DNA of 55,764 nucleotides from a virus (Duplodnaviria; Caudoviricetes): IMG/VR virus record IMGVR_UViG_3300020201_000022, positions 1-55,764 of that record; one strand, 5' to 3'. Of this stretch, positions 21,201 through 39,013 are shown piece after piece. Below the pieces are notes generated by a model that had not been told where the DNA came from, searched no databases, and worked only from the letters and a program-made list of their open reading frames with translations. How positions within the stretch are numbered: the first letter of the stretch is position 1; each line of letters opens with the position of its first letter. Both the position numbers and the translations under genes were made by a program.

Positions 21201-22224
21201 ACCCGAGAAGCCTGGTATCACGCTGGACACTCGCACTAATGAAGCCGCCAAACCAGGCGACCAGCTCGGCATGTTCGGAGAAGTCGACAACGTACCAGGC
21301 GGTAAGCCAACACTCGATCGAGTTGGCGAAACGAAGGGGCGATCGGTCGGACTTTTCGAAACCGATGGCGACCCCGATCAAATGTTACTGTTCGATGATG
21401 GTGTAGCAACACCTGATCGGACTTGGAAACCGGACGAGAAACGAAAAACCAACTACGCGATTGCAATGTCGCTAACTAAACAAACTAAACGCTACAAGGG
21501 GCTCGCTACGCCAATAATGTGGACACTCACCGAAGACGAAGTTAAGCAGGTTAAATCCGGCGCTCGCACTTTGATTCGTATGCAAGACACCGACCAAGAC
21601 ACGATCATGATGTCACTTGGTCGATTGCAAGAGGAAAATCGAGTTCTGAGAATGGGCGTTGACGCAACAGGGCACAAACACAAAGACAAAGGACCGGGAG
21701 GCGGTCAGTTCACCAAAGGCGACGGCGGCGGCGACGGCGGTGGAGGTGGAGGAGGAGGAGGAGGAGGAGGAGGAAAAAGCACCGACTCAAAATCTGAACC
21801 ATCGAAAACCCAGCTACCAATATCACTAAGCGAAGTTGGTAACGGCGGAAAAACGCTCTATCGTGGCACGCGTGCTGGTAGCCGAGTAGACGAGTATCAA
21901 TTCTGGGCCGAGTCTAAATCCTACGCAGCTAGCTACGGAGGCGAAATCATTGTGGCTGAGATTTTAGACGAATCCAACATTCTTGATCTGCGGGGATGTA
22001 TCGACGAAAACGGCGACTATGACGGATCGAAAATCGAAGAGGCGTGCGAAGGTCTGGCCGAAGCGATGGGCATTGACGTGGAAACGACAATCGAGCGGGA
22101 GCGCCTATGGGACTGCTCGCCAGATGAACATGCTTCCGCTGTCGCTGTCCTCCGCGCTGCCGGATTTGCCGGGTGGCAGTGGTGGGAAGGCGACGACGAA
22201 GCGTATTGCTTGTTCGTGAGCTGA
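18271..22224 (+). CDS. Portal (Mu gp29/DUF935-like) fused to ParB-like domain and C-terminal ART-like domain (likely start GTG 18271)
   Basis: N-terminal portal-like region (GWSAGEV, YGTSA, QLIDPLLVLNFG); VDPARFQYK...VINGHHR ParB-like; poly-Gly then LYRGT...FWAES..YA..YG; GGAGGT RBS. Confidence 0.75.
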   Translation: MVKNNRNRIKSKPAAQTQTQKLNGQNRTITTTPGGKQADTSRYPSSGLYKPIPHIWFQHPVDLPPFTFATVRAMLMDEGIRLNFETRAAPIYGLTFGWEENGVWQEGIKCRDPGVAQFIFRQLQRIWKTFLPEILRSQIWGWSAGEVTLKLSEETGLIEINEMLSRHPMDCKLLKRGCERYGVRIERVEGGNVDLPFPYSWFHSYGSEDGEDYGTSAAYGAYSSWADKWFEGGAREVRRLFMHKDAYGGVDLTYPDGETYITGFDTPIPNKDIARQIVENIRAGGVTVRPSDRDENGNEKWTLSRATVASNPSHILQYPKDLDEEIRHGMGICDDVINSDSTGAWAGKKIPMQSFYSTLDSWVVKLLKELCVQLIDPLLVLNFGRKVEYETAFKPLAKQAMEQQGQGDGGDPNGVPQDMQGNEQPGQTGIPGGNDEPQPQPQADANAKPVGMSLADQVGSGAIDVRDLVSRAKELSLLRLSSATGDQTDNEFDYSPERIEALADILASIYGDKAEEVLDAILPEDKPMKLALWNPSDHPRGKNGQFVAKGTEEAYSLAKEKVDSAHRSRSPDSMSELMSHLNTLTTKQLHSLKKDYGTKASAKTKSALIAKLTERLTSGKHRTAEREDGTPVAPVRENVYTVPTGTLNVDPARFQYKVKGIGEKGVGEELKGTSKWVPELGGVLLVWRDPENGKDFVINGHHRHELATRAGTEQLNARYIDAPTAKHARAIGALANIAQGHGTAIDAAKYLRDSGKDVEHLKRSGISMSGRVASDAASLVDLSDKSFAAVAQGKMEEDKAVAVAKHLKDHTLQDKLFKKIWQLEDDGKDWSIREVEAASKKMSRAGIFKDTGTDLFGDWESEESTFDQEVELESFINRAFATEANDFAAVSSTRRAERVSETGNVLNVDANLQKRDSARASLSDFDREVGLKGPVAEAIKAQAARLAKATKKADRESIKKTTLDEVRKVLSAMQSPEPEKPGITLDTRTNEAAKPGDQLGMFGEVDNVPGGKPTLDRVGETKGRSVGLFETDGDPDQMLLFDDGVATPDRTWKPDEKRKTNYAIAMSLTKQTKRYKGLATPIMWTLTEDEVKQVKSGARTLIRMQDTDQDTIMMSLGRLQEENRVLRMGVDATGHKHKDKGPGGGQFTKGDGGGDGGGGGGGGGGGGGKSTDSKSEPSKTQLPISLSEVGNGGKTLYRGTRAGSRVDEYQFWAESKSYAASYGGEIIVAEILDESNILDLRGCIDENGDYDGSKIEEACEGLAEAMGIDVETTIERERLWDCSPDEHASAVAVLRAAGFAGWQWWEGDDEAYCLFVS
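21472..21733 (+). repeat. Cassette repeat copy 1 (in frame in the portal fusion)
   Basis: Homologous to 22236-22497; encodes MWTLTEDE...HKHKDKGPGGGQFTKGDGGG. Confidence 0.9.
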
Positions 22225-22235
22225 TCCCACGATGA

Positions 22236-22497
22236 CTAACTAAACAAACTGAACACTATAAGGGGCTCGCTATGCCGACAATGTGGACACTCACCGAAGA
22301 CGAAGCCAAGCAAGTTGAAGCCGGCGCTCGCACTTTGATTCGGATGCAAGATTCTGACCAAGACACAATCATGATGTCACTTGGTCGATTGCAAGAGGAA
22401 AATCGAGTTCTGAGAATGGGCGTTGACGCAACAGGTCATAAGCACAAAGACAAAGGACCGGGAGGCGGTCAGTTCACTAAAGGCGACGGCGGCGGTG
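22236..22497 (+). repeat. Cassette repeat copy 2 (5' end of the zeta-toxin gene)
   Basis: Homologous to 21472-21733. Confidence 0.9.
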
Positions 22498-23360
22498 GTG
22501 GTAGCGACAGCAAGCCGCAGAAAACGCAAGAGTCAGCACCAACCAGCCAATCGCCAAAAGCACCCGCAGCAGTACCGCAAGCCGATGCGCCCGCAGCCGC
22601 TAAGCCTTTGCCTGTCTCTGCCGGCGCTGTAAACAAAGAGGGACGCGACACGTTTGAACAACACCAGGTCAACGGCCAGTGGTCACCCGAACGTCAGAAG
22701 CTACACCAGGAAATCGTTGACAAGCATTTTTCCGGTAAGAAACCAGCTCCTAAAGGATCTGCCATTGCCTACGTTCTTGGCGGCGGTCCGGCTTCAGGCA
22801 AGTCGAGCATCGTCAATGGCGGACACGTAGCAATCGATCCAGACACGATTCACATTGACAGCGATGCAATCAAAGCCGAGTTGCCAGAGTACAACGAAAT
22901 GCTGCAAGCGAAAGACCATCGCGCAGCCTCGCATGTCCACGAAGAGTCAAGCCACGTTGCCAAGATGATCCAAGACAAAGCCAGTCGCGGCGGATACCAC
23001 ACTTTGCTTGACGGCACTGGCGATTCGAGCTTTGAATCGCTCAAAGGCAAGATTGACAAAATGCGAGCATCAGGCCAACGCGTGGTAGGACAATACGTGA
23101 CTGTCCCTACAGAGTTAGCCATTCAACGGAACATCGAACGCGCCAAGAAGACTGGTAGACTCCCCCCAGAATCGATGTTGAGAGCGTGTCACTCTTCTGT
23201 TTCCGCAATCGTTCCACAAGCAATTGAGGCTGGACTGTTCGATCAGTTCGACCTATGGGACACTGAAAACGGCGTTGTCAACGTAGCAAAAGTCGAGAAT
23301 GGAAAGCTGAACATCCTGGACCAAAAGCTATGGGAAAAGTTTAAGGCAAAAGCCTCGTAA
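22272..23360 (+). CDS. Zeta-toxin family P-loop kinase with cassette N-terminus
   Basis: LGGGPASGKS, IDSDAIK..LPEY, HEESS, LLDGT, R...TGR..P. Confidence 0.85.
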   Translation: MPTMWTLTEDEAKQVEAGARTLIRMQDSDQDTIMMSLGRLQEENRVLRMGVDATGHKHKDKGPGGGQFTKGDGGGGGSDSKPQKTQESAPTSQSPKAPAAVPQADAPAAAKPLPVSAGAVNKEGRDTFEQHQVNGQWSPERQKLHQEIVDKHFSGKKPAPKGSAIAYVLGGGPASGKSSIVNGGHVAIDPDTIHIDSDAIKAELPEYNEMLQAKDHRAASHVHEESSHVAKMIQDKASRGGYHTLLDGTGDSSFESLKGKIDKMRASGQRVVGQYVTVPTELAIQRNIERAKKTGRLPPESMLRACHSSVSAIVPQAIEAGLFDQFDLWDTENGVVNVAKVENGKLNILDQKLWEKFKAKAS

Positions 23361-23451
23361 ATTTCGAGCAATGTGAGTCTTCACAAAGCGAAGTAATTGA
23401 GTCTGCTATTCGGCGAACAAAAGATTTTAAGGACTGGAAAAGGGGTAACAA

Positions 23452-23631
23452 ATGATTCCAACAGAAGTAGCAGAGCGAATTCTTGTCGAGGTTAATCAGG
23501 AAAAAGAACCGAAAAAACCCGACACACCGGAAGAAGCCGAGTTTCGAAAGCAGTTGGAAAAAGAGTGTGCTGATATTGCGGCACAAGGCTATGCTGTGGA
23601 CGTTCCTCGAGAAATCACTGTAGCGGACTGA
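23452..23631 (+). CDS. Small acidic protein, putative immunity/antitoxin (59 aa, below ORF-track cutoff)
   Basis: AGGGG RBS; MIPTEVAERIL...DTPEEAEFRKQLEKE...GYAVDVPRE; directly after zeta toxin. Confidence 0.6.
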   Translation: MIPTEVAERILVEVNQEKEPKKPDTPEEAEFRKQLEKECADIAAQGYAVDVPREITVAD

Positions 23632-23636
23632 AACGA

Positions 23637-23673
23637 AAAAACCCCTGAGTCAACGGGAATGGACTCAGGGGTT
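23637..23673. terminator. Hairpin, terminator-like (T run on the minus strand)
   Basis: acccctgagtc...gactcaggggt preceded by an A run. Confidence 0.6.
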
Positions 23674-23738
23674 AGCGGGAGCAGAGCGGGAAACTCAGCA
23701 GATGGTAATTTATCACACCTTTTGCCGGAAGCAATACT

Positions 23739-24041
23739 ATGATCGGAATCAAGCCGCAAACTTCTGTTCTCGCTACTGCCGAATCTATCGCGCCTTGGAA
23801 GCAGCGCGTTCTAGAGGAAAAAGAGCAACTTTGCGACAAGATCGGCAAGTTGGCTGCATTCATTGCGGGTGAAGCGTTCCGAAATCTTCCAGAATCTGAG
23901 CAGTTGCGCATGGCTCGCCAACTTCAGTCTATGCAGGAATACCGCACCATCCTCAGCGAGCGCATTGACGCTTGGCTAAGCGCAGTGGTTAACGTCCCGA
24001 CAGATCCGCCACAAACCGAAGTTGAAACCGTTTCCGAGTAA
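23739..24041 (+). CDS. crAss001_48-like small helical protein
   Basis: QRVLEEK.QL.DKI.KL.AF...F..L...EQ....QL..M..Y..IL.ERI. Confidence 0.6.
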   Translation: MIGIKPQTSVLATAESIAPWKQRVLEEKEQLCDKIGKLAAFIAGEAFRNLPESEQLRMARQLQSMQEYRTILSERIDAWLSAVVNVPTDPPQTEVETVSE

Positions 24042-24130
24042 TCGGAGTGAGGAAACTATGCACCGCCGCCCCCATTCGGGTGCGATAATAGGGGGCCCAA
24101 CTTTTAATAAGCAGTCGGATTGAGGAAACT

Positions 24131-27100
24131 ATGCACCGTCAAATGGATTCGGTAGTCGGTACTTCATTACTTGGCGCAGTCGGACTGGCGGAAGCGTTCC
24201 TGGATCAAATTGCCATGAATGCGACCGGTGATGACGTTTGGAGCCGTAACGCTGCGTTGGAAGCGATCCGCGCCGGCGTACAGGCATTCGAGCCGCTGCT
24301 GGCTGCTCACTTATCGGACGCTGTTCTAGCCGGTTGGATCACTGGCTATGACAACGTTGCATCGCAGTTTCCACCGTGGCTACAACAAGAGTTCACTGAC
24401 TCGATTCGCAGGCGACCACCAGTTGACCCACCGGAGTTCAACTTGTTCGGCATGTTCGACCGAGAGCCAAAGCTGCGCCTGATCAACGTCGAGAACGCAG
24501 CTAAACGATTGATGGAAAAGGGGATTCTCACTCGACCTGAATTTGACTCAGCGACGGAGCAAGCACAACGCCAAGCGTTCACGATCGCGGGAGGGCTCGG
24601 CGCTGACACTATCGACCGGATGCGGTTCATGCTCAACACGGAGCTGAATGAAGGGCCAAGCCTGAAGGGATTCACGAATCGCATTACGGAAATGCTCGAC
24701 ACAAGCCCGATCGGACCAGGGCATCTCGAGAACGTCTACCGCACCAATCTGCAAGCGGCCTATCGTGACGGGCGCGAGACTCTGCGTAGTGATCCGGTCG
24801 TTGCGGCTACGTTCCCGTACCAAGCGTACATCGCGGTTCATGATGCACGCGCCAGGCACGAACATAGGGAGCTAGAAAAGTTCGGGCTCAATGGCACGAA
24901 CATCTACCGTTCAGACGATCCGTTTTGGGACTACTTCACTCCGCCTTGGGATTACAACTGTCGCTGTGGTGTGCAAATGCTGACACTCGAACAGGCAGCG
25001 GCGCGAGGAGTCAAAGAGGCTCAAGAATGGTTGCGAACCGGTCGCGCGCCGATCAACCCACAATTCCGCTACTCGCAAATACCGTTCGATCACACCGAAG
25101 GATTCGGGCACCGTGGCAACGTGGGCGTCATCATGATGTCATCGGTGCGAGCCCCCAGCGGATACAGCAAGACCGAACCGCTCGTAATCAACGGACGAGA
25201 GTACATTGGCGGGCAATTTATTCCAGGGGACGAGATTCAGCACGCCACAGCCTCGCAGAAAAAGGAACTTGAATCGGGAAAAAAAGCTCAAAACGATGCT
25301 CCATCACCAGCGAAAGCCCCCAAGCTCGACGGACCAGAGCCACCATCGCACTGGGTTAACACAATAGCAACCAAGCATGGCATCAAGCTTAAAAGCGGCT
25401 ACGGAGCCAAGATGTTCTGGGACCCTAAAGCCTCTTCTCGCGGATGGTACTTTCAACTAACCGGACCGGATGGAAAGCAGTCGTTTGCCGACCGCTACAC
25501 GGACGCCACAGGCGCAGCCAAGCACGCGGCAACGCTACTCCACGCTAGAGGACTTAATCAGCCGGTCGAAGCGAAACAGCCTAAGCCTAGCGAACCCAAG
25601 CCAGCGAAAGAGCGGGCACCGAAGCGCGAGGTGAAAACCAATCAAGGCAACTGGCACTACCAAAGCACCGAATTCGTTTCACGCGGAGCCAAGACGAAGT
25701 TCAACGATAACCTTGCGGCGCTGCGTACCCTAAAGACGATCGAACTGGAGCAGCGACCGGCCACGAAGGATGAACAAGCAGTTCTCTCGAAGTTTGTCGG
25801 CTGGGGACAATTTCCACAGGCGTTTGATGGTAATCATCGCAATCACGAATACAGTAAGTGGTCGAAAGAACGCGACGAGCTTCTCGAGTTGGTTGGGCAA
25901 ACGGCGTTTGCTTCTGCGAGGGCATCGACGATCAACAGCCACTACACCGCACCAGATGTTATCGAAGCACATTGGAAAATGGCGGAACGGCTGGGATTCA
26001 AGGGCGGCAAGTATCTCGAACCCGCGGTGGGCGGTGGCTACTATATCGGTCTAATGCCAGGTCACTTGGCGGAAAAAACCAACGTCACAGCCGTTGAAAT
26101 GGATAAGACCGCCGGTGCAATTTCGCAAGCACTTTACCCAGCGGCTAACGTCCACGTCAGCCCGTTTCAGAATCACGCAACACCCAACAACTTCTTTGAC
26201 CTAGTTGCGACCAACGTGCCGTTTGGAGCAATCCCCATAAGTGACCCGAAGTATCGCGCAATGAAGCCGATGGTTCACGATTACTACTTCCTGCGCTCGG
26301 TCGACACCGCTAAGCCTGGCGGTCTGATCATGCACATCACCAGCGCCGGAACGATGGACAAGCTGGACAAGCGAGTGCGCAAACACATTGACGACAATTG
26401 CGAGCTCGTTTCCGCGATTCGGTTTCCCGGTGGTGCGCATAAGGACAACGCTGGCACCGAAGTTGTTACCGACATGCTGATTCTACGCAAGAAGAACCCC
26501 ACAATCCCAGCGACCACCGATGAAACGCCAACGGAAGCGCAACCAGGGCACCATCGTTTCACTGGGACAACCGTAGATTCGCTTGGCCGCATCTACCACT
26601 GGGTAGACGGCGTTCGAGTCGCGGCACCACGCTGGGACGATACAGTGCAAGTTCCCGACCCTGACGGCGGCGACCCTATCACGATCAATCGCTACTTCGC
26701 CGAACATCCAGAACAAATGCTTGGACGGCTGGATCGAACCGGGACGATGTACTCAGGCAACCAGAAGAACGTTACGAAGAGTGACAACTACGACGAGATG
26801 CTGCAACAAGCAATCGATCGGCTACCCGAGAACATTGTAAGGACCGGCAATCAAGCACCGGACGAACCCGACGATTCGCGAATGATGGTGAAACCTGGCA
26901 GTCGTTTCCTCGACGGTCAGTATGTATTGCAAGACGGAAAGATTTACCAGCACAAAGACGGAGCATTGGAGCCGCAAGAATTCGACAAGCCAACGACTGA
27001 ACGCGTATTAGGGCAAATTGCAATCCGCGATGCAGCACGCGATCTACTGACTGCGCAGCGCTATGGCGGCGACATAGAAGGAGCACGCGAGCGACTGAAT

Positions 27101-30100
27101 GGACTCTACGATGAATACACTGCGAAACACGGTTCGCTACATGACGTAATGAATCGTCGAGCAATGAAGGTCGACCCCGACGCGCCATTCCTGCTTTCCC
27201 TGGAGCATTACAACAGCACTACTAAGCGCGCAGCGAAAGCGGACTTATTTTCGGTCGACACAATCGTTCCTGACGTACGCGCCGACAAAGCAGGCTCGAT
27301 TCCCGAAGCTATTGGAATCACGCTCCACGAAACTGGGGTAGTCGACCTGGACCGCATTGCACAACTGACTGGCAAATCTACCGAAGAGATTGGAGACGAA
27401 CTTGTATCGACTGGACTCGCATTTGACGACCCTAGCACCGGATGGCAATCTGCATCGGAGTATTTGAGCGGTAACACGCGCCGCAAGCTACTTGAGGCAA
27501 AAGCCGCTGCCGCCGCTGATCCTCGCTACGAACCAAACGTCGCAGCGTTAGAGCGCTTGCAGCCGGTCGACATTGAACCGGAAGAGATTGGAATCAAGCT
27601 CGGTTCTCCCTGGGTGCCTACAGCAATCGTCCAACAATTCGCCGCCGAAACTCTCGGTGCGAGAATGGACGAAGTGGAAATCAAGTACACGCCTGAACTT
27701 CAAGAGTGGCGAGTCAATCTTAATTCAATGCTTCACCATCGTCATTCGAACCGAAACGTATGGGGCGTGAAAAACGACAATGACGAAATTGTGTTTTCGT
27801 TTGAACACGCTATCAAAGCGGCATTGCATGGCAAGCAGCCGGTTATCCGTAGCGCAATGTCTGATGAAAATGGGAACCACCCGATCTTAGTGGAGCAAAC
27901 AAACGAAGCCTTGCAGAAAGTGGAAGAGTTAAAAGCGCAGTATAAGGATTGGGTTTGGTCGGATCCAGAGCGAGCGGAGAAACTGGCGAGGATCTACAAC
28001 GACACGCAGAACAACGTAGTCCCTCGGCACTTTGACGGCTCGCATCAGTCGTTCCCAGGCATGAACGCCAATTTCCAAATGCGGCAACTTCAAAAAGACT
28101 TCGTTTGGCGAGTGGTCACAACCGGCAAGGGAATGGCGGCGCACGAAGTCGGTACAGGGAAAACGGCCAGCATGATTGCATCGGCGATGGAGCTGCGCCG
28201 GCTAGGGCTGGCAAAGAAGCCTACGCTCGCATGTCTGAAGGGCAATATCGAGCAGATCACGAAGGAAGCACTCAATCTTTACCCGAACGCCAAGATACTC
28301 AGCACATCCGGCAACTTCGACGCAGCCAATCGCCAAAAAGTGCTCAACCAGATTGCCACAGGCGATTACGACTTGATCATCATGACTCATGACCATCTGG
28401 AAGCGATGAGCCTAAAACCGGAAACACTCTCAAAGTTTATTACGGAAGAAGTCGACGAGATTCAACATGCGATCGATGCCGCCAAAGCATTAGACCATAG
28501 CAATGCGCAAAAGTCTGAGGTCAAAAATCTCGAGAGGAAAAAGCAGGTTTTGAAAGAAAAACTAAAGAAAGCTTTAGCCGAAGAGACGAAGGACAAAGTG
28601 TTTTTTGAGGATACCGGCATCGACCAACTATTCGTCGACGAGGCGCATCATTTCAAAAGCCTGCCTTGCCATTCTCGCGAGAAACTAAAGGGCGTTCCAA
28701 GCGGTCGCTCAGACCGAGCAACCGACATGCTCGCAAAGACTCGCCACATTCTCGACGCCAACAACGGACGCGGAGTTGTATTCGCAACTGGAACGCCAAT
28801 CGTCAACACGATGGCAGAGCTATACGTGATGCAGCGGTATCTGCAACCGGATGCACTCAAGGAACGCGGCCTGCACCACTTCGATAGCTGGAAAGACACC
28901 TACGGCGAAACCAAGACCGATTTTGAGTTCAAGCTGAGTGGCGAAGTCGCTCAGACATCTCGCTTCTCGCAGTTTATGAACCTTCCAGAGTTGCGACATT
29001 TGAGCTCGGAGTTCATGGACATCCAGCGCGCCGATAATCTCAAGCGCGATGACGGCTCTCCGATTATTGTTCGACCAGTCAAGCACGATCAAGTTGTTGT
29101 CAGCGAGACAAACGATTCGGTAAAAGGCATGATGGCTGAAATTGAAAGCCGCGCTCTTGCGCTCCAGACCGCCAGGCTTAGCGGTGTCGACCGAGCGCAG
29201 ATGATGGCTGAAATTGAAAGCCGCGCTCTTGCGCTCAAGGGTAAACGCCCCGGTGGCAAAGGTAAAGACAACATGCTCAGCGTTTGCAACGATGCAAGAG
29301 CTGGATCGATCGATATGCGACTGATCGACGCGGAAGCGGAAGACCACCCCGAAAGCAAAGCCAACCGAGCGGTGCGGGAAGTGGTGCGACTGTATCACGA
29401 CCACCCCGGCAAGACTCAGTGCGTATTTAGCGATCTAGGTATCAATCCGACCAAGGCTAGCGGATTCAGCTTGTTCGCGGATATGAAGCAAAAGCTAGTC
29501 GACGCAGGCATTCCTCATGCCCACATCGTAGACTTTTCCGACGATGCGATGAAAGGCGCAAAGCGACAAGATACGATCGGTGCAATGCGCCGCGGTGATG
29601 CAAGGATTGCGTTTGGCTCGACAAAGCGACTCGGAACCGGCACAAACATTCAACCCAAACTACTCGCGGTTCATCACTTGGACATTCCCTACATTCCCGC
29701 AGCGCTCGAGCAACGCGACGGACGCGGCTATCGTTCCGGCAATCAGAACAAAGATTTTCATGTTTACAAGTATGTCCAACAAGGCTCAGCCGACCCGCTG
29801 TTCTGGCAGATACTTGCCCGCAAAACCGGATTCATCAATCAGTACATGCTTGGCGAAAGCAGCGCTCGCACAATGGAAGACATTAACGCGGAATCGCTGA
29901 CACCCGACGAAATGATTAACGTGGCTAGCGGTGGCTCAGACGCAATGGAACGCATCAGGACAGAGCAGGAAGTCAGTAAGCTACAGAGGGCACGACTACG
30001 GCACGAAGTTGACCAGACGCGGCTAGCGAAGTCGCTTTCCGAAGCTGATGAGCACCGCGCAGAGTTGCGGCAAGAACACGCAGCTCGCAGTCAGGACCAC

Positions 30101-30550
30101 AAACATTTCCAAGCGAACGACGAATGGAGAATCGACATCGGAGGGCGGGCGTTCACCGAACGCAAAGATGCCGAACCCGTACTGGCGGAAGCAATCGCCA
30201 AAGGCAAGGCAAGAATCGAAGCTCTGCCAAGCTATCAGCGTGGACCGGTTAGGGTTGCCACCTATCGCGGCGCGGAACTGATGATCAAGCCCGATGGAAT
30301 GCTGGCGATACAAGGACCAAGCAAAGCGCGGTATGAGAGTGGCCCGTCAATTGCATCGATCGATTACGCGGCGCGATCACTTGCAAAGCGCGTTGAAACC
30401 GCGCAGACTGCAATGGAGAACTACGAAACCGACTTGGTGAAGATGAAGCAACAGGTCGGGGAGTTCCGCAAGCAGCGAGAGTTGCAAGCAGCGACCACAA
30501 AGCTTGAAGCGCTAAAGGGCGAACGTAACGCGGCATTATTAAGGGGCTAA
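24131..30550 (+). CDS. MuF (phage minor head protein) fused to DarB-like N6-adenine methylase and SNF2 helicase
   Basis: AFTIAG, YRTNLQAAY, DARARHEH, PPWDYNCRC (MuF); YLEPAVGGG and NVPF (MTase); HEVGTGKT, VDEAH, FATGTP, EQRDGR (SF2 helicase). Confidence 0.9.
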   Translation: MHRQMDSVVGTSLLGAVGLAEAFLDQIAMNATGDDVWSRNAALEAIRAGVQAFEPLLAAHLSDAVLAGWITGYDNVASQFPPWLQQEFTDSIRRRPPVDPPEFNLFGMFDREPKLRLINVENAAKRLMEKGILTRPEFDSATEQAQRQAFTIAGGLGADTIDRMRFMLNTELNEGPSLKGFTNRITEMLDTSPIGPGHLENVYRTNLQAAYRDGRETLRSDPVVAATFPYQAYIAVHDARARHEHRELEKFGLNGTNIYRSDDPFWDYFTPPWDYNCRCGVQMLTLEQAAARGVKEAQEWLRTGRAPINPQFRYSQIPFDHTEGFGHRGNVGVIMMSSVRAPSGYSKTEPLVINGREYIGGQFIPGDEIQHATASQKKELESGKKAQNDAPSPAKAPKLDGPEPPSHWVNTIATKHGIKLKSGYGAKMFWDPKASSRGWYFQLTGPDGKQSFADRYTDATGAAKHAATLLHARGLNQPVEAKQPKPSEPKPAKERAPKREVKTNQGNWHYQSTEFVSRGAKTKFNDNLAALRTLKTIELEQRPATKDEQAVLSKFVGWGQFPQAFDGNHRNHEYSKWSKERDELLELVGQTAFASARASTINSHYTAPDVIEAHWKMAERLGFKGGKYLEPAVGGGYYIGLMPGHLAEKTNVTAVEMDKTAGAISQALYPAANVHVSPFQNHATPNNFFDLVATNVPFGAIPISDPKYRAMKPMVHDYYFLRSVDTAKPGGLIMHITSAGTMDKLDKRVRKHIDDNCELVSAIRFPGGAHKDNAGTEVVTDMLILRKKNPTIPATTDETPTEAQPGHHRFTGTTVDSLGRIYHWVDGVRVAAPRWDDTVQVPDPDGGDPITINRYFAEHPEQMLGRLDRTGTMYSGNQKNVTKSDNYDEMLQQAIDRLPENIVRTGNQAPDEPDDSRMMVKPGSRFLDGQYVLQDGKIYQHKDGALEPQEFDKPTTERVLGQIAIRDAARDLLTAQRYGGDIEGARERLNGLYDEYTAKHGSLHDVMNRRAMKVDPDAPFLLSLEHYNSTTKRAAKADLFSVDTIVPDVRADKAGSIPEAIGITLHETGVVDLDRIAQLTGKSTEEIGDELVSTGLAFDDPSTGWQSASEYLSGNTRRKLLEAKAAAAADPRYEPNVAALERLQPVDIEPEEIGIKLGSPWVPTAIVQQFAAETLGARMDEVEIKYTPELQEWRVNLNSMLHHRHSNRNVWGVKNDNDEIVFSFEHAIKAALHGKQPVIRSAMSDENGNHPILVEQTNEALQKVEELKAQYKDWVWSDPERAEKLARIYNDTQNNVVPRHFDGSHQSFPGMNANFQMRQLQKDFVWRVVTTGKGMAAHEVGTGKTASMIASAMELRRLGLAKKPTLACLKGNIEQITKEALNLYPNAKILSTSGNFDAANRQKVLNQIATGDYDLIIMTHDHLEAMSLKPETLSKFITEEVDEIQHAIDAAKALDHSNAQKSEVKNLERKKQVLKEKLKKALAEETKDKVFFEDTGIDQLFVDEAHHFKSLPCHSREKLKGVPSGRSDRATDMLAKTRHILDANNGRGVVFATGTPIVNTMAELYVMQRYLQPDALKERGLHHFDSWKDTYGETKTDFEFKLSGEVAQTSRFSQFMNLPELRHLSSEFMDIQRADNLKRDDGSPIIVRPVKHDQVVVSETNDSVKGMMAEIESRALALQTARLSGVDRAQMMAEIESRALALKGKRPGGKGKDNMLSVCNDARAGSIDMRLIDAEAEDHPESKANRAVREVVRLYHDHPGKTQCVFSDLGINPTKASGFSLFADMKQKLVDAGIPHAHIVDFSDDAMKGAKRQDTIGAMRRGDARIAFGSTKRLGTGTNIQPKLLAVHHLDIPYIPAALEQRDGRGYRSGNQNKDFHVYKYVQQGSADPLFWQILARKTGFINQYMLGESSARTMEDINAESLTPDEMINVASGGSDAMERIRTEQEVSKLQRARLRHEVDQTRLAKSLSEADEHRAELRQEHAARSQDHKHFQANDEWRIDIGGRAFTERKDAEPVLAEAIAKGKARIEALPSYQRGPVRVATYRGAELMIKPDGMLAIQGPSKARYESGPSIASIDYAARSLAKRVETAQTAMENYETDLVKMKQQVGEFRKQRELQAATTKLEALKGERNAALLRG
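29129..29236. repeat. 36-bp direct repeat flanking a 36-bp insert that is the reverse complement of 26291-26326
   Basis: 29129-29164 = 29201-29236; 29165-29200 is the exact reverse complement of ctgcgctcggtcgacaccgctaagcctggcggtctg. Confidence 0.95.
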
Positions 30551-30922
30551 ATGATGGGCTACTGGACAAGTACAATGGAGCGGTTCAAGATCATCGACCG
30601 CTCAAATCACCCTTGGGCGGACACACTGACGCAAGCACTCGCGCAGGTCGAACCGGAAACACTCGCAGAACTGACAGCGAGCGGTGAACTGAACGCATTC
30701 CTGAGCTGCAAAGTTGACGAGTGTATGAAGTCGATTAGGTCGATGGAATCGCAAGGGATGGATCACGACGAAGCCAAGGAGTGTGCCTTTGAGTCGATGC
30801 TTCCAAAGGAACCTGAAGACGTAGAGGATTGGGAGCAAGAAGGCGCGGAAGCCGACGCAGTTGATGCTTTTAGTAAATGGATTGAATCTGATGCCAGAAG
30901 TGACTCGGACATGGAGGATTAA
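30551..30922 (+). CDS. Small acidic protein, TnpV-like pattern
   Basis: P..LAEL..SGEL.AFL...GM...EA.E. Confidence 0.45.
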   Translation: MMGYWTSTMERFKIIDRSNHPWADTLTQALAQVEPETLAELTASGELNAFLSCKVDECMKSIRSMESQGMDHDEAKECAFESMLPKEPEDVEDWEQEGAEADAVDAFSKWIESDARSDSDMED

Positions 30923-32297
30923 CGGCACGATCAAGCCGCTCAATCCTGCCGTACTCGCCGCACAATCGGAAGAACAAGACCAGGTTGCCGAATGGCATGG
31001 GTTCCCGAACGGCATCACGATTCCGCGAGGGCGGCAACACGGAGTCGCGCACTTCCTCCTCGGTGCTGACGATGTTGAAACGCTCAGGGACGCAGCGAAC
31101 ATTGAAATACTGTGCTATCACGAAGATGGCACCACGTTCTGGCACGGCTGGACTCTGCAAGTTGCGGAAGCGATCACCAAACAGAGCAAGCCCGCGCATT
31201 GGGTGCGGTTTGCGGATCCAAGATTTCTTTTTGAAAACAGCACTGCGGAAGGCGAACGCTACAACCTGCGCAATTCCGAAACGGACTTCGTGACAGCCAC
31301 CAAGAACGCTGGCACCGCCTACACCTGGCAGGAAGTGCTCGCAGACTTGTGGGCGAAATTACCTGGCGCTTATGCGGTTCCAACTCTTCCGACGCCCCCG
31401 GCATCGACCCCCGAGAATTTGTACTTCGACGGAATGGGCGCTTGGCGGGCGATCAATCAAGTGCTGAGCGCGATCGGTTGCACAGTTGTCTACGATCCGT
31501 TTACAGCGACGTTTGAGTTTATCGACTTGAATGTTGCGCAATCCATTACCTACCCGACCGATACGCTGCTGTTCGAGGGTTCGGCGATCGGCTCAGGCTT
31601 CGCGCTCCCTCAAAAAGCCGGTGTGCTTTATCACTGGTTGCCGGCAGGCACAAACGACTACTCGCCATTTAGAAAAAAGCCGCATTATCTCGAAGGCACC
31701 GTAGGCGGAACGCAAGGCACGTACGAAATCGTTGATACAACGTTCTACTGGACAGGTCGTTCGATGACTGGTCGGACCGGTGAAGTAGCGACCGCGATCA
31801 AGAACCTGATGGACCCACTTGTTGAGCCCGTACAGAAAACGTTTTCGGGCGTGTTCGAGGAACTGCCAGGCTCGCGGATTTCAGCGATTCGCTGGGTCAG
31901 CGACGGGACGCGAGGCTTTGAGACGTTGGTGTTCTACGGGTTCGAACCGTTTGAGTGGCCGCAATTACCTGATTATGAAGCGCAGGCAGGTGGTTCATCG
32001 ATTCAGTACACTATCGTCTCACTCACCACTGCGACGGGCGGACCGTATACAGGTTTGAAAGTCGCAACCGTGACGATACTTACCGCACCATGCGGACGCA
32101 GCGATCTGATTGGCGATTCCGTCGAAGTCGTGGATCATCTTGGTTGCGTGTTCGATTTAGTCGAAGCCAGCCTGATTGGCGTCAAAGGTTTGGCTGACGA
32201 GCAGGTTGCTGCATCGCTCGAAGCTGGTGCCGCACCTGGGACGATGAGCCCTTGCCATTGGGCCGCTACTGATCGTTGCTGCGTGGGAGGTGCATAA
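30891..32297 (+). CDS. Tail tip/baseplate hub-like protein
   Basis: D.R...YN, TW..VL.DLW, C.VVYDP; C-terminus homologous to 50636-51076. Confidence 0.55.
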   Translation: MPEVTRTWRINGTIKPLNPAVLAAQSEEQDQVAEWHGFPNGITIPRGRQHGVAHFLLGADDVETLRDAANIEILCYHEDGTTFWHGWTLQVAEAITKQSKPAHWVRFADPRFLFENSTAEGERYNLRNSETDFVTATKNAGTAYTWQEVLADLWAKLPGAYAVPTLPTPPASTPENLYFDGMGAWRAINQVLSAIGCTVVYDPFTATFEFIDLNVAQSITYPTDTLLFEGSAIGSGFALPQKAGVLYHWLPAGTNDYSPFRKKPHYLEGTVGGTQGTYEIVDTTFYWTGRSMTGRTGEVATAIKNLMDPLVEPVQKTFSGVFEELPGSRISAIRWVSDGTRGFETLVFYGFEPFEWPQLPDYEAQAGGSSIQYTIVSLTTATGGPYTGLKVATVTILTAPCGRSDLIGDSVEVVDHLGCVFDLVEASLIGVKGLADEQVAASLEAGAAPGTMSPCHWAATDRCCVGGA

Positions 32298-33298
32298 TGC
32301 CAACTAGAAGATGCTGCTGCGGCTCGGGTTGCGTGATCGTAGCCGACGATTTTGGGCGTGCCGATAATGCTTCGCTCGGTGCAAGCTGGATTGAATATCC
32401 ATCAGCGGCATTTGAGATTTTTAGCAATCAAGTTCGATCGGTAAACGGCGGCAAAGCAATTCACAACACAGTTCACCCGACTCCATCCGGCTCGATGGCG
32501 GTCTACATTGATACAGTGGCGGAAAACGAAGGCGATGTTTACGATTTGCTTGTTAATGTTGTCGATGCAAACAACCATCATCTAGCAAGGTTTGTCCGCA
32601 ACGATTTATTTGACTCAGAAATTTTACTCTACATTGTCAGCGGTGGAGTTGAAACGCTTCTCAATAGTGCAGTAATTGGCTCTATTAGTGGAACCGCAAG
32701 AACATTTTCAGCGTTTATTGCCGACAATGAATTTTGTGCCCAAGTAACTTTCGGTATCACTTCGCAGGTGACGGCCGACACGACGCTCAAAGCCCTCGGT
32801 TATCAAGCTGGCATCGGCACAACGACGCTTTCTCTGCTGATGGACAACTTTGAGTTTGCGCATCACTTGCAAACTAAAGCAACGTGCCCAAGTTGCGTTT
32901 GCCAATGCGGAATAGAATATGTGCCACCCTGCTTAAACATTCACTTGGAAGGTTCGGGAACCCGCATGGCTGCGCTCAATTGCGATTTCCAATTGCGATG
33001 GAATAGGACCAACGCATACTGGGAAGGAACTGCAAATTGCTGCGGCATCGATTGGCCGATGATCCTTAATTGCGGCGATGCAATATCGTGGGAGACATTC
33101 ACACTACTACCACTTGGATTCGATTGCACCGTGACTAACGGCGGCAACGTCGCTCGTTCCCCTGTGTCCGGATCATGCAGCCCATTCCTGCTGGAGTTCG
33201 GTCCGTACGCTGTGACTTCAGGCGACTTGGCTTGTTTGTGCGGCGGCGTGGGATTCCCCGACACTGGTAGTTGGACAGCAACAATTACGGAGTGTTAA
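32297..33298 (+). CDS. Cys-rich virion protein (19 Cys) with lectin-like central domain
   Basis: MPTRRCCCG, DDFGRAD..LG..W; paralog at 49620-50624. Confidence 0.65.
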   Translation: MPTRRCCCGSGCVIVADDFGRADNASLGASWIEYPSAAFEIFSNQVRSVNGGKAIHNTVHPTPSGSMAVYIDTVAENEGDVYDLLVNVVDANNHHLARFVRNDLFDSEILLYIVSGGVETLLNSAVIGSISGTARTFSAFIADNEFCAQVTFGITSQVTADTTLKALGYQAGIGTTTLSLLMDNFEFAHHLQTKATCPSCVCQCGIEYVPPCLNIHLEGSGTRMAALNCDFQLRWNRTNAYWEGTANCCGIDWPMILNCGDAISWETFTLLPLGFDCTVTNGGNVARSPVSGSCSPFLLEFGPYAVTSGDLACLCGGVGFPDTGSWTATITEC

Positions 33299-33754
33299 AT
33301 GACTCCAGAGTTGCAAACAGTGCTTAATCGATCACCAGTTTGGCAACGGCTGTATGATACCGATCCAAGGTATCGAGCGGCATGGGATGCGGGTACAGGT
33401 CCTGGGCAAACAGGACCGCAGCCAGAGATCACCGAAGGACCAAAGTACAATCACTGGGGGCCGCTGCACTGGTACGCAGTCGAGCACGCTGCCGACTGGG
33501 ATGAAGCAAAGGCAAAAGCGTTCTATCGCAATTGGGAAAAGAATATTCCAAATACTGGCGGGTGTAGCTGCCCATCGCACTGGAAAAAGCTTGGTTTGAC
33601 TCCGGACTATTTATCTCCGAAAGCCTTTTTCGAATGGTCGTGGCGTTCTCACAACACAGTCAGCCGTCAGCTCGAAAACAAGCCGACTGTTACGCTCTGC
33701 GAGTGTTACCAAATCTGGTGGCCCGAACGAATGACCAACCGTGACGGCTCTTAA
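33299..33754 (+). CDS. Erv1/Alr-like sulfhydryl oxidase (CxC variant)
   Basis: HWGPLH...IP...CSC.SHW...FF.W.W..HN.V...L..K. Confidence 0.6.
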   Translation: MTPELQTVLNRSPVWQRLYDTDPRYRAAWDAGTGPGQTGPQPEITEGPKYNHWGPLHWYAVEHAADWDEAKAKAFYRNWEKNIPNTGGCSCPSHWKKLGLTPDYLSPKAFFEWSWRSHNTVSRQLENKPTVTLCECYQIWWPERMTNRDGS

Positions 33755-34052
33755 TCACTGCCATTCTATTGACTCACACTGCAATAGCAACTACCATTGC
33801 GATTGGAATGTCTTTGCTTCCTGGTCTCTTCTAAGAGGAACGTACATCATGGTTCGGTTTGTTGTCAATTGGGCTGTTGCAATCGTTGCTATGTACGCAC
33901 TGGTCTATTGCGCGGAATCCTTCGTGCACTGGTTTGAGGGCAGGGAATCGGAAAGCTATCCTGGTCGATGGATTTCAATTTTGATCAACAGTTAATAACG
34001 CCCGGCAAGGATAGTCGTCGCGAATGTTACTTGCAAACTCCAAGGAATATCA

Positions 34053-34253
34053 ATGAGTAAGTTCTATTCGATCGCAGATGTTGCGGCGCTATTGAGCGTG
34101 CATCGATCGACGATAATTCGCACGGCGCAGCGGTTGGCGATAGGCACGCGCGTAGGGCGAACAATTATTTTCTCTCCCCCAGAGCTGAGAATGCTTAGGA
34201 AAAACGGCGTTTTCGCTGTCGGCAACCCTAATTTCCGCAAATTAAAGAAATAA
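34053..34253 (+). CDS. Small HTH protein (Cro/excisionase-like)
   Basis: YSIADVAALLSVHRSTI; AAGGA RBS. Confidence 0.7.
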   Translation: MSKFYSIADVAALLSVHRSTIIRTAQRLAIGTRVGRTIIFSPPELRMLRKNGVFAVGNPNFRKLKK

Positions 34254-34342
34254 CTCACTGGCTCCTATTGCAACAGCCGAAGCGAATGTTAAGCTTAATA
34301 CCGTGAGGCAGTGAAGCGGGAAACTCAAAACGGGAGACTGAT

Positions 34343-34744
34343 ATGGAATCGAAACCAGTGACGCTCGAAGATCAAATAGACGATCGCGATGATCGGTTGC
34401 TGACTGTGCGATACAACGCAAGTCGCCAACTGGCAACGTTGTTTTGTACTGTGCTGTACGACTTGGCCCTGCGTGCCGAACGAATGCGAAAGCAAATCGC
34501 CTCCGAGTTTGATGCGCATATTTTGTCAGGGCAAAACAACGCGCATGTGGAGGAGCTTGTGAGTCAGGTTCTGCAATCTGCGTTCGACCAAGACCCGGTG
34601 GCGGCGTTGCAGCTCGACTATGCCGGCGCAGTGAAGAACGCGGACGGCTTGGAGTTGCTGACGAGCGACGAGATCGAGATTGCAACCGATCGACTGAGGC
34701 GTGATTTTCAGCGGCTTATCCGTCACACAGCCGGAACAAAGTAG
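34343..34744 (+). CDS. Hypothetical early protein
   Basis: GGGAG RBS, 133 aa. Confidence 0.6.
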   Translation: MESKPVTLEDQIDDRDDRLLTVRYNASRQLATLFCTVLYDLALRAERMRKQIASEFDAHILSGQNNAHVEELVSQVLQSAFDQDPVAALQLDYAGAVKNADGLELLTSDEIEIATDRLRRDFQRLIRHTAGTK

Positions 34745-34753
34745 GGGGCGATC

Positions 34754-34975
34754 ATGGGTTACGAAATTGAGGAGTTAACGCAACGCGGCTGGGAGGTAGT
34801 TCGGGGTGGCTTCTCGGACGTTAATCAGGCCGCAGAAGGTTGTGAGTCCATGCTTGCGGATTCGCCAGGAGGCAAGTTAAGAGTCGTTGAGGTTGAGAGG
34901 ATGTGCATAAAGGCAATCGTTGACGTAGTTGAGAGTTTGCGAACGGCTGTGCTGTACTTTCCTGGAGGGGAATGA
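34754..34975 (+). CDS. Hypothetical early protein
   Basis: AGGGGG RBS, operonic spacing. Confidence 0.55.
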   Translation: MGYEIEELTQRGWEVVRGGFSDVNQAAEGCESMLADSPGGKLRVVEVERMCIKAIVDVVESLRTAVLYFPGGE

Positions 34976-34976
34976 C

Positions 34977-35294
34977 ATGGGGACTATGAGAGCACTATTA
35001 CACATTCACGATCAGCCGATGGATATGCCTGAGCAGTGCGCTCATTCGGAAGTAGTCGAGCTGCTGGAGTTGGTCCAGCAGGACTGGACGTTCCAAGGTC
35101 TCGACCAGTACAGCCATGAGAATATCCAGACTGTGCATGGTTCAATCGTACTGGGGTTAATGAATCGCTGCGAGAATATGAGGAAGGCATTGCAGTCGAT
35201 CGTAGATGACAACGAGTTTTGCAAGGCGTCGTTCCGGTCGTATGGAGACCGTGGACGAGAGTACGCAAAAACGGCACGGCAATCACTGGAATAA
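34977..35294 (+). CDS. Hypothetical protein, paralog of the 37687 ORF N-terminus
   Basis: EVVELLELVQQD...LDQY vs EVHELLDLVQAD...LDKY. Confidence 0.6.
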   Translation: MGTMRALLHIHDQPMDMPEQCAHSEVVELLELVQQDWTFQGLDQYSHENIQTVHGSIVLGLMNRCENMRKALQSIVDDNEFCKASFRSYGDRGREYAKTARQSLE

Positions 35295-35430
35295 ACGGAG
35301 TGCATCCAATGGAAGTTCTGCTAGAGATTTTTCTGTCCGCTGCAATCGCAGCGGCTCTAACATTCGCAGCACGCGTGCTGTGTTGCTTGGCTTTTGATGA
35401 CGATGGCTGGATCGAATCGGGAGAGTAAAT

Positions 35431-35703
35431 ATGTTTCGATGGTACTTGGTTCATCGGTATTACTTCAGTGAAAACAAGACTCTGCTGCTAGAGACGATTG
35501 ACGGTGTGTATTGCTCTTGCATCAGTAGAGCGCTGGACATTGCGAAGGGACGCAATTGCCTGGCGGAAGGGGACAAGTTGCGAGTGGAGGGAGCGTACAC
35601 GCAAGTCCAAGCGAAGCTTGCCAAGCGGTTGAGCGATGAGCATAAGGCGTCGGAGTTGGAGTTGTGGCCGATCGATGAATTTGTGCAGTGGATGCAGGTA
35701 TGA
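35431..35703 (+). CDS. Hypothetical early protein
   Basis: GGAGAG RBS. Confidence 0.55.
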   Translation: MFRWYLVHRYYFSENKTLLLETIDGVYCSCISRALDIAKGRNCLAEGDKLRVEGAYTQVQAKLAKRLSDEHKASELELWPIDEFVQWMQV

Positions 35704-35842
35704 GCAACACAGATTTGGCGATGGCGATTGTGGCAACTGCGCGACTGCTGCAACTGATTGTGATAGTCGCGGGTGTTTTATGGGTGATTGGGGTGTGGCT
35801 CTCTTCACCGATCAATGAGCGGGATTAAGAAAGGGAAACAAG

Positions 35843-36673
35843 ATGGGAATTGAAGCAAAAGAAATAGGCAACGAAGAGTATCACAGTCTGCCAGGCATCA
35901 GCAACTCGAAGCTGAGCGTCTTGATTGAAGATCCGCGTGAGTATTTTCACCAGTTTCTCAGCGGGCAGTATGTCAAGAAATCGAAGGATCACTTTGATTT
36001 TGGTCATGCGGTTCATGAAATCTGCCTGCAAGGACTGCATAACGTGCAAGTCATTCCAGCGGAAGTGCTGACGAAGGACGGCAAGCGGGCGGGCAACGCA
36101 TGGCAGCAGTATGCGGCAGAAAATAGCGGCTCGATTTTGATGAAAGCAGCGGACTATCGAGCGGTGATGAATTGCGTCGAAGCGGTCAAGCGGCATCCAG
36201 TTGCGGGTGAGCTATTGAGCGCTCCAGGTTATTCGGAGCGTTACTTTGAGACGACTACCCTAAACGGAACCATCAAGCGATGTAAGCCCGACAGGGTGTG
36301 TGATTGGAACGGCAAGAAGATCGTGGTCGACTTGAAAACGACAACCTGCACACTGGCGCGAAAATTTGTGCGGTCGATCGAGGATTTCGGATACGCTCGG
36401 CAAGAATGCTTCTACCGGGATGTTCTCGAAGCGAATGACGTATTCGTGGATGCGTTTGTGTTCATCGCGGTCAAGGACAGTGCGCCTCACTGCGTCGACT
36501 GCTACTCCATCAAAAACGAGTGGCGAACGATGGCTCGCAAGGAAATCAATGACGCAATCGATGACCTGGAAGAACGGACGGCGACGGGCAATTGGGAATC
36601 GAAAACGGCCAACTTCATCGTTGAGTTGGCACCACCGGGAAACTTAAAATTTAAGGGTGAATACTCATTATGA
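35843..36673 (+). CDS. RecE/exonuclease VIII-like PD-(D/E)xK nuclease
   Basis: YH...ISNS.L, FG.A.H, CKPD, VDLKTT, Y..Q..FY, FVFIAV; adjacent to RecT. Confidence 0.9.
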   Translation: MGIEAKEIGNEEYHSLPGISNSKLSVLIEDPREYFHQFLSGQYVKKSKDHFDFGHAVHEICLQGLHNVQVIPAEVLTKDGKRAGNAWQQYAAENSGSILMKAADYRAVMNCVEAVKRHPVAGELLSAPGYSERYFETTTLNGTIKRCKPDRVCDWNGKKIVVDLKTTTCTLARKFVRSIEDFGYARQECFYRDVLEANDVFVDAFVFIAVKDSAPHCVDCYSIKNEWRTMARKEINDAIDDLEERTATGNWESKTANFIVELAPPGNLKFKGEYSL

Positions 36674-37638: not shown

Positions 37639-37686
37639 TCCAGTAACACCGGGACTTGAACCACTTAGTTAAAGGAGACAGAAAGC

Positions 37687-38262
37687 ATGAAGACTATGAA
37701 AGAGATTCTACATACGGCGGATGGGATAACTAAACAGCCGATGCTTGACACCGATCTTGAGTATCGGGGCGACGAGGTTCATGAACTACTCGATTTGGTT
37801 CAGGCCGATGGGCAGATCCATGATCTTGACAAGTACGAACCGGAACACATGCAATCGACTCTAGGTGCGACACTATGCTGGGTGATGAAGCGACTGCAAG
37901 AAGCCGAACGGGAACTCCTGGCGGTGCAGCAGCGAGAGATTGATCGGCAACGCGAAGAGGTCGCGAGGCTTGAGCGCCATAGAGTTGAAGCCGAACGTGC
38001 TCGATTAGCTGAAGACAGCGAAACCTGGTTCGATGAGTACCATCGGATTCTCGTAAGCGATCGTGAACAGATTGCAACTGCCTGGGGCGTGAAGCTCACC
38101 AACAAGCCAGCCGAGTGGACGGAAGGATTTATGGCGTTCGAGAGTTGGCCGGTTGATGGATGCATTTATGACGCAACCGACAGTAACCCAAGGACACTCG
38201 AAAAAGCGAAGCGATGGGTGCAAGGTTGGACAGCCGCGCACATGCGTGAGATGCAACTTTGA
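37687..38262 (+). CDS. Hypothetical coiled-coil protein
   Basis: AAGGAG RBS, 191 aa. Confidence 0.65.
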   Translation: MKTMKEILHTADGITKQPMLDTDLEYRGDEVHELLDLVQADGQIHDLDKYEPEHMQSTLGATLCWVMKRLQEAERELLAVQQREIDRQREEVARLERHRVEAERARLAEDSETWFDEYHRILVSDREQIATAWGVKLTNKPAEWTEGFMAFESWPVDGCIYDATDSNPRTLEKAKRWVQGWTAAHMREMQL

Positions 38263-38791: not shown

Positions 38792-38811
38792 TCTGACTCG
38801 TGAGGTTTGAT

Positions 38812-39006: not shown

Positions 39007-39013
39007 AGTCAGA

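Follow-up and report, generated by a model that had tools for sequence, protein, structure and literature searches.

During adaptation by CRISPR systems, the integrase performs two staggered transesterifications one repeat length apart, and gap filling then duplicates the repeat around the new spacer. Integration of this kind outside CRISPR arrays has been described for Cas1-Cas2 in E. coli in vivo, where it produced 'neo-CRISPR' units and was accompanied by 'circumstantial evidence' from two other species (Nivala 2018, via 10.1101/148544, PMC7054753 and PMC6698737). It has also been obtained in vitro with P. furiosus Cas1-Cas2, whose off-target sites are reported to resemble the leader-repeat junction or the repeat (PMC6698737). 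For type I-G modules, characteristic dimensions are on record. The Cas4/1-Cas2 of G. sulfurreducens (type I-U/I-G) takes up predominantly 36-bp spacers; TTN is the protospacer-adjacent motif (PAM) that licenses acquisition, and interference is licensed by TTA, TTT, TTC and TTG (PMC6547450). The I-G repeat of T. sulfidiphilus is 36 nt long with an 8-nt handle (PMC9638904), and Bifidobacterium lactis I-G shows 36-bp repeats in all genomes together with 'prototypical 36 bp' spacers (PMC12915315). The locus presented in this report lies in the IMG/VR virus record IMGVR_UViG_3300020201_000022 (Duplodnaviria; Caudoviricetes), a metagenome assembly of 55,764 bp, estimated to be 100% complete, which was analysed as a whole and is called the window below. 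Within one long phage gene, a 36-bp stretch of coding sequence is duplicated around a 36-bp copy of another part of the same gene, an arrangement that may be a scar of off-target CRISPR adaptation on the virus side.

All parts of the arrangement are located inside a single open reading frame (ORF) at 24131-30550 on the plus strand, which encodes a 'polyvalent' phage protein of 2139 amino acids. Comparison of the sequence across the window identified two identical plus-strand 36-mers, R1 at 29129-29164 and R2 at 29201-29236. The insert between them, S at 29165-29200, was found by a repeat search to be the 100% reverse complement of 26291-26326, with 2838 nt separating the two arms. The site accordingly reads ...GGC, R1, S, R2, AAG..., and the trinucleotide TTC occupies 26288-26290 (+), abutting the 5' side of the source. 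If TTC is taken as the PAM, it is on the minus strand that the phage unit reads like an array, since S read on that strand places TTC in the 5' position. Each junction was compared by script with each alternative context (the end of R1 with the upstream side of the donor, the start of R2 with its downstream side, the insert ends with the target flanks, and the ends of R with those of the insert), and the number of shared bases was 0 in every case, which leaves the 36/36/36 boundaries blunt and free of ambiguity. The direct repeat formed by R1 and R2 can be extended to 39 nt only by admitting one mismatch. The pair formed by S and its source (I1) is the sole exact short inverted pair of its kind in the window, and chance is excluded as the origin of a 36-nt exact inverted match in 55.8 kb. 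In 1.62 Mb of DNA scanned, the S site was the only repeat-gap-repeat with a gap templated elsewhere, and no comparable repeat and templated insert was found among 18 loci of relatives. An initial sequence-only reading had described the exact duplication around an exact reverse-complement insert, the adjoining TTC, matches that do not extend by a base and a preserved reading frame, and each of these points was borne out.

The 72 inserted base pairs are in phase and add 24 residues, MMAEIESRALAL-QTARLSGVDRAQ, to the protein. The gene stayed open because 36 + 36 = 72 divides by three and because S, although antisense, contains no stop codon. Three domains were recognized in the product: a Mu-F/SPP1 gp7-like head-morphogenesis domain (PF04233), an SNF2-related domain (PF00176) and a helicase C domain (PF00271); some homologues carry the source-given name N12 class adenine-specific DNA methylase. 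The 36-bp source is aligned with the codons, and its translation, LRSVDTAKPGGL (residues 721-732), belongs to a methylase motif. Nine of these residues do not vary among 14 aligned homologues (R722, S723, D725, T726, K728, P729, G730, G731, L732), and by virtue of this invariance 26291-26326 is the original and S the copy.

The homologues also settle the ancestral state of the target. In a MAFFT alignment, all 38 homologues (P0003-P0040, 43-80% identical in the region) show a 24-column gap at the position of the added residues, which the sequence-only reading had expected homologues to lack. The segment MMxxIxxRAxALKGK, whose helix MMxxIxxRAxAL is encoded by the duplicated 36-mer, is likewise single in 38 of 38. 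The 36-mer is therefore native coding sequence of the gene (MMAEIESRALAL in R1) rather than an imported repeat, and the alignment identifies the 72-bp insertion as the derived state. Since neither R1 and R2 nor S and its source show any difference, the event is recent. To place the insert in the protein, residues 1290-1950 were modelled with AlphaFold2 from an alignment of 36 homologues (mean predicted local distance difference test score, pLDDT, 80; predicted template modelling score 0.78). At the insertion the model contains a helix (373-388), a loop and a second helix (401-413), with pLDDT below 50 over 380-406, while the RecA-like lobes on either side reach pLDDT 80-97. The model therefore shows the insert as an excursion from one folded part to the next, a prediction that does not amount to proof of a working protein. 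No solved-structure homologue of the protein was found by sequence search.

A further feature is found at the start of the same gene. At 24037-24138, a 29-nt stretch with the ribosome-binding site and start codon of the 2139-aa gene occurs twice at a spacing of 73 nt, with 26 of 29 positions identical. From the first copy starts a reading frame of 9 codons, which runs into a GC-rich hairpin followed by a T-run. The whole looks like a leader peptide or terminator-type control element upstream of the gene. The pair at 24037 and 24110 was considered as a second scar and rejected, its copies being 90% identical and its 44-nt gap holding the terminator-like hairpin and having no template elsewhere.

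Public sequence data were used to examine whether the insertion exists outside the assembled record. Nine runs contain the stretch, all labelled microbial mat metagenome and dated 2018, and at least half of the window's sampled words were found in seven of them. Four runs, possibly from one sampling campaign and possibly including the source sample, were examined as Logan unitigs (k=31), not as reads. In all four, one unitig (29135-29194 or -29200) crosses from R1 into S at depths of 8.0, 7.2, 11.2 and 9.9, and another (29171-29230) crosses from S into R2 at depths of 6.6, 7.9, 12.9 and 10.9. These junction unitigs have 0 mismatches, and the flanking unitigs of the four runs have depths of 5.8-12.9 and 8.4-10.7. 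Where listed, the 36-mers themselves stand at about double depth, with R at 12.4 in one run (X1) and 24.8 in another (X3), and S at 20.2 in the latter. Flank-like depth at the junctions and doubled depth for R and S are what would be expected if nearly every genome carried two copies of R and two of S. The insertion is real DNA, not a chimeric read or a single-library artefact, with junction support that comes from unitigs and not from reads. Its allele is near fixation, and only the depth ratio, about 0.8-1.1, argues that an insert-free allele is rare. The same runs also hold contigs that match the window only in part. In X3, one contig matches from 29214 onward and is unlike the window before that point; it may belong to a relative. 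Other single contigs match only from 29397 (X3) and from 26526 and 27224 (X2) and are unlike before, and possibly represent related phages that share mosaic segments.

A 36-bp duplication, a 36-bp insert and 0-nt microhomology are together what a fixed-ruler integrase would give, and the CRISPR adaptation integrase is the machine known for such an output. The duplication has the length of the I-G repeat (36 bp), the insert has the modal length of I-G spacers (36), and with the motif beside the source, which agrees with the PAM of the one I-G acquisition module tested, these dimensions match type I-G. Off-target integration by some host Cas1-Cas2 is accordingly considered rather likely, while the narrower proposal that the integrase was type I-G Cas4/1-Cas2 could be argued with equal force either way. 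No Cas1 or Cas4 of the phage's own was found in its genome. During infection, the host Cas1-Cas2 complex would have taken a 36-bp prespacer from the phage's own methylase-helicase gene, cut immediately 3' of TTC, for which type I-G Cas4/1-Cas2 would be the best fit. Two staggered transesterifications, 36 bp apart, would then have taken place in a replicating copy of the same phage genome instead of in the CRISPR leader, and gap filling would have duplicated the 36-bp target into target-insert-target. The genome would have been packaged, and the allele would have climbed to about full frequency. Taken as a whole, a heritable scar left in the virus by CRISPR adaptation, made by the I-G Cas4/1-Cas2 of a probably planctomycete host with a prespacer from the infecting phage, inserted into the same replicating genome, and surviving in frame near fixation, is as easily doubted as accepted. 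The sequence-only reading had proposed that host adaptation machinery edited the phage genome; that proposal, whose mechanism is inferred, is partly supported. The dimensions speak for it, and the three checks that it named (spanned junctions, homologues without the 72 bp, a compatible system in the candidate phylum) turned out favourably; the absence of likeness to a repeat or leader speaks against it.

The evidence for a host with a suitable system comes from the large terminase (TerL), which has two named relatives, at 52% in Novipirellula galeiformis and at 57%, across 71% of the query, in Pirellula sp. SH-Sr6A. A genome search with TerL, from which 80 loci were kept with one genome per species, gave its best full-length match (54%) in a Planctomycetaceae metagenome-assembled genome (MAG; G001) and three more matches in Planctomycetota at 38-44%; the remaining loci, apart from a few full-length matches given below, match the ATPase half only. 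On the strength of TerL identity, the host may be assigned with moderate confidence to Planctomycetota, at phylum level only. The MAG carries a type I-G locus with Csb1/Cas7g, Csb2, Cas3g, a Cas3-extension protein, Cas2 and a fused Cas4g/Cas1g that scores 703.8 bits (cut-off 560). After these genes comes an array in which a 36-bp repeat occurs 28 times, with spacer lengths of 35-39 nt. In the phylum more generally, Cas4g/Cas1g scores above the cut-off in 38 of 301 sampled genomes and in none of 14 control genomes. The arrays were surveyed at 30 Cas4g/Cas1g loci with 1.5-kb flanks, 23 of which contain an array; for the count, one duplicate and one unrelated repeat were dropped and two earlier arrays were added, which again gave 23. 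Under a set boundary rule, the repeat beside Cas4g/Cas1g is 36 bp long in 20 of these 23 arrays and 32, 35 or 37 bp in the others. Among the 218 spacers of those 20 arrays, 36 nt is the mode (65 spacers), followed by 37 (55), 38 (44), 35 (26) and 39 (16), and lengths of 35-38 nt make up 87%. A compatible system, which the sequence-only reading had made a test of its proposal, is therefore present in the candidate phylum as far as repeat and spacer lengths go, and a likeness of the target to I-G repeats is the part that did not hold.

The MAG also contains a relative of the phage. Its 29.5-kb contig C57 (L003, L120) represents a related phage with a TerL 54% identical to that of the window and a 306-nt Mu-F stretch that is 70% identical in DNA to 24719-25024. 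In the parts of this contig that were examined, no match was found to the I-G spacers of the MAG itself. The leaders of 19 I-G arrays (loci L087-L117) share two conserved features, a CnCTCG some 52 nt upstream of where the repeats begin and a G..GC just before the first repeat, a possible leader-recognition element of planctomycete I-G adaptation.

Several observations weigh against integration by a planctomycete I-G system, and the most direct of them concern the target. When all 36-mers were ranked with a position-specific scoring matrix (PSSM) of 20 I-G repeats, the target stood at the 83rd percentile on the plus strand and the 6th on the minus strand; a leader-plus-repeat PSSM from 19 loci placed it at the 95th (+) and 4.5th (-) percentiles, and neither matrix gave a significant result. 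Its best in-register identities to I-G repeats are 13/36 and 9/36, where the background mean is 12.5, and no Rfam CRISPR-DR family matches it at E values up to 10. The repeats of type I-G arrays, 36 nt long, end in ..ATTGAAGC, and those surveyed in planctomycetes end in ..GGCCCCATTGAAGC. The sequence-only reading had pointed to ATTGAAAG in the target as resembling many repeat ends. The motif ATTGAAAGC in the target does resemble an I-G repeat end, and such motifs occur in only 0.26-2.4% of 36-mers, but it lies at repeat positions 13-21 (+), which is 15 nt away from its I-G register, and the TTC orientation would call for the other strand, so that the argument fails and the motif is at most an unexplained coincidence. 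The phage target in this respect departs from the P. furiosus off-target sites, having no in-register likeness to I-G repeats, and canonical I-G integration needs a leader and a repeat, neither of which is recognizable at the phage site.

The motif beside the source adds little. With both orientations allowed, the chance of finding TTN on the correct side is 0.129, and the corresponding chance for TTC is 0.038. The case as a whole is a single event selected from a scan of very many windows. The sequence-only reading had named TTC a PAM in the style of types I-C or I-G. For I-G this agrees with the TTN of the module tested in G. sulfurreducens and disagrees with the TAT found in B. lactis I-G (PMC12915315), which makes the I-G PAM other than universal; since it varies between hosts, TTC is weak evidence. 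A PAM for planctomycete I-G was not derivable, as 24-nt cores of the leading spacer from each of four arrays had 0 matches in viral_contigs. With regard to type I-C, whose repeats are about 32 nt long, the 36-bp duplication does not fit.

Also on this side of the balance are the host and the spacers. The candidate phylum is drawn from 52-57% TerL identity to two named Pirellulaceae and 54% to a MAG contig, and full-length TerL matches occur outside planctomycetes, in Kapaibacterium (45%), Microcoleus (39%) and Sneathiella (38-40%). Of 235 I-G spacers, 0 match the window or other loci, and three arrays gave matches at chance level only. Insensitive searches of genomes with the phage sequence, in which only 2-3 candidates were scored per genome, gave no spacer-like hits for positions 20001-40000 in 92 genomes of the MAG's family or for 21800-40000 in 301 genomes of the phylum; they returned only low-complexity GGA-run matches and one 70% prophage-like match. 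The low-complexity matches have a counterpart in the phage at 21718-21775, a GGA/GGC run that encodes poly-glycine in a 1327-aa portal-fusion protein and gives dozens of spurious planctomycete matches. Finally, the metagenome evidence consists of k=31 unitigs only, with no raw reads, and R (36 nt) exceeds k-1, so that an insert-free minority allele leaves no k-mer of its own.

The source and repeat 36-mers have 0 exact matches in viral_contigs, and a 30-mer of the source has 0 in metagenome_contigs; in both cases records near the window are possibly outside the scan, which thus yielded neither an insert-free allele nor a host array carrying this spacer. A search with the helicase part found no related locus in viral_contigs. 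An alignment-based search gave 0 loci in genome_contigs; in metagenome_contigs it found 2, both distant, and in viral_contigs 10 with identities of 44-53%. Among GenBank phages, blastn returned one 84-nt match only. No relative was found that is close enough for an empty site to be read at the DNA level, and none was found with a similar event.

The most serious alternative to integration by Cas1-Cas2 is a replication or repair accident in which no Cas protein takes part. Tandem duplications with templated insertions are known to arise by replicative template switching, as in microhomology-mediated break-induced replication (MMBIR) and fork stalling and template switching (FoSTeS). In a comparable manner, a stalled polymerase could have moved to the opposite strand 2.8 kb upstream and back, and the two template switches would leave a 36-bp tandem duplication with a 36-bp templated insertion; RecT and the exonuclease of the phage may have helped. 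The phage indeed encodes RecT and a PD-(D/E)XK exonuclease, its target is unlike CRISPR repeats or leaders, and coincidences of length are possible in a finding picked from a very large scan. Further duplications of recent date, some direct and one inverted, are present in its genome: direct repeats of 85 nt (exact) and 189 nt (97%), and an inverted one of 226 nt (99%). These repeats, however, are longer, carry gene starts and lack a target duplication. In addition, microhomology is 0 nt at both switches where a few bases are usual, even if blunt switches are not impossible, and template switching predicts neither the exact 36 + 36 of I-G nor a source that ends at TTN. A second event of the kind is also missing from the 1.62 Mb scanned and the 18 loci of relatives. 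On balance, a template switch is regarded as unlikely, yet clearly ahead of the remaining alternatives.

A different Cas1-Cas2 may have served as the integrase. In this variant, which is contained in the general proposal of integration by a host Cas1-Cas2, the enzyme would belong to a subtype with 36-37-bp repeats (type III-associated, I-B or I-D) and TTC would be coincidental. Repeats and spacers of about 36 also occur in systems other than I-G, the evidence from the PAM is weak, and some Cas1 match was found in 130 of the 301 Planctomycetota genomes, most of them below the I-G cut-off. Against another subtype, the 36-bp repeat, the predominant 36-bp spacer and TTN all fit I-G together, and I-G is frequent in the candidate phylum and present in the MAG that holds the nearest relative of the phage. 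The second array of that MAG, with 29-bp repeats and spacers of 32-33 nt, does not have fitting dimensions. Another subtype is therefore thought improbable.

An artefact of assembly or library preparation (a chimera formed in a read or during amplification, or a de Bruijn path that was wrongly resolved) would be suspected from a record that is itself a metagenome assembly, inspected by unitigs instead of raw reads in runs that may share one campaign and include the source sample. A chimera is expected to be rare and confined to one library, whereas both junctions recur with 0 mismatches and flank-equal depth in four separate runs and the R and S 36-mers have the roughly double depth that two copies of each predict; an artefact is very improbable.

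Harder still to credit is a functional mini-CRISPR array borne by the virus, directed against competitors or serving as a decoy. Units of one spacer and two repeats are known in viruses, and their repeats match host CRISPR repeats (PMC8616872), whereas the 36-mer of the phage is conserved coding sequence of its own gene and is unlike I-G repeats and any Rfam CRISPR-DR family. The spacer would match the phage itself beside a PAM-like TTC and would be suicidal if processed; besides the phage's own gene (100%), no match to it was found in viral or metagenome collections. A transposon, insertion sequence (IS) or miniature inverted-repeat transposable element (MITE), elements that carry terminal inverted repeats and duplicate a few to about 15 bp of target, was rejected, as the two ends of the insert do not form an inverted repeat, its sequence is copied from a coding region and the duplication is 36 bp long.

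Other repeats and genes of the window are recorded here in their own right. The exact 85-nt direct repeat occupies 39792-39876 and 42232-42316, 2.4 kb apart, and each copy contains a ribosome-binding site and the start of a small coding region, its first codons included (ORFs 39827-40147 and 42267-42500). At the start of the record, 1-189 is 97% identical to 47070-47258 in direct orientation, and at its end, the 226 nt of 55539-55764 are 99% complementary to 41528-41753 in inverted orientation; with repeats at both ends of the record, the true termini or their assembly may need checking. Tandem 7-nt units (ACCAAGC and its complement) form intergenic arrays at 48035-48104, 48627-48671 and 52103-52153, around gene blocks of opposite orientation, and are possibly binding sites (iterons) or regulatory repeats. 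An inverted pair of 1170 nt with 80% identity (32330-33499 and 49419-50588) represents two diverged copies of one gene (ORFs 32276-33298 on the plus and 49620-50624 on the minus strand) that belongs to no Pfam family. The PD-(D/E)XK exonuclease (DUF3799) and the adjoining RecT lie at 35843-37638, and RusA, DUF5131 and a subtilase-family peptidase are found further along the genome. No transfer RNA was found in the phage.

If the locus is a product of CRISPR adaptation, the adaptation machinery is a mutagen of viral DNA as well as a recorder of it, and units of neo-repeat, spacer and neo-repeat that fall in frame can supply new peptide segments to phage proteins. Should the phenomenon also be general, the dimensions of a scar (repeat length, spacer length and PAM) would reveal the CRISPR type of the host from phage sequence, and uncultured phages could be assigned to hosts of a given CRISPR subtype. 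A testable question raised by the locus is how often Cas1-Cas2 integrates into the invader itself during infection. No report of natural Cas1-Cas2 integration into a phage genome was found in a literature search that was largely without subscription journals or supplements.

Among known systems, template-switch duplications share with the locus a short junction insert copied from nearby in either orientation; they usually show microhomology and no preferred lengths, whereas the phage junctions are blunt and the lengths are those of I-G. Viral mini-arrays (Faure 2019 and Medvedeva 2019, via PMC8616872) likewise place one spacer between two repeats in a viral genome. Their repeats, however, equal or resemble those of host CRISPR arrays and their spacers are aimed at other elements, while in the phage the repeats are a duplicated piece of its own gene and the spacer is its own sequence. 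Type I-G Cas4/1-Cas2 offers the same dimensions, with a 36-nt repeat and mostly 36-bp spacers; its PAM, trimmed precisely by the Cas4 domain, is TTN in one system and TAT in B. lactis. In I-G adaptation, the PAM end joins the spacer side and the non-PAM end the leader side (PMC6547450, PMC10504553, PMC9638904, PMC12915315). The in vitro reaction of P. furiosus resembles the proposed event in being full-site integration at a fixed spacing in non-CRISPR DNA (PMC6698737). Also close are the neo-CRISPR units of E. coli, in which spacer-sized DNA outside the array and a repeat-length target duplication likewise form repeat-spacer-repeat from ordinary sequence; that system used over-produced type I-E Cas1-Cas2 in the laboratory, with the chromosome and plasmids as targets. 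By comparison, the phage case is natural, fits I-G dimensions, lies in frame in a phage gene, has a spacer taken from the phage itself, and stands close to fixation. Off-target integration is already known, and on the best available reading what is new here is a natural event in a virus, within a gene and in frame, that used the virus's own DNA and has persisted in the population.

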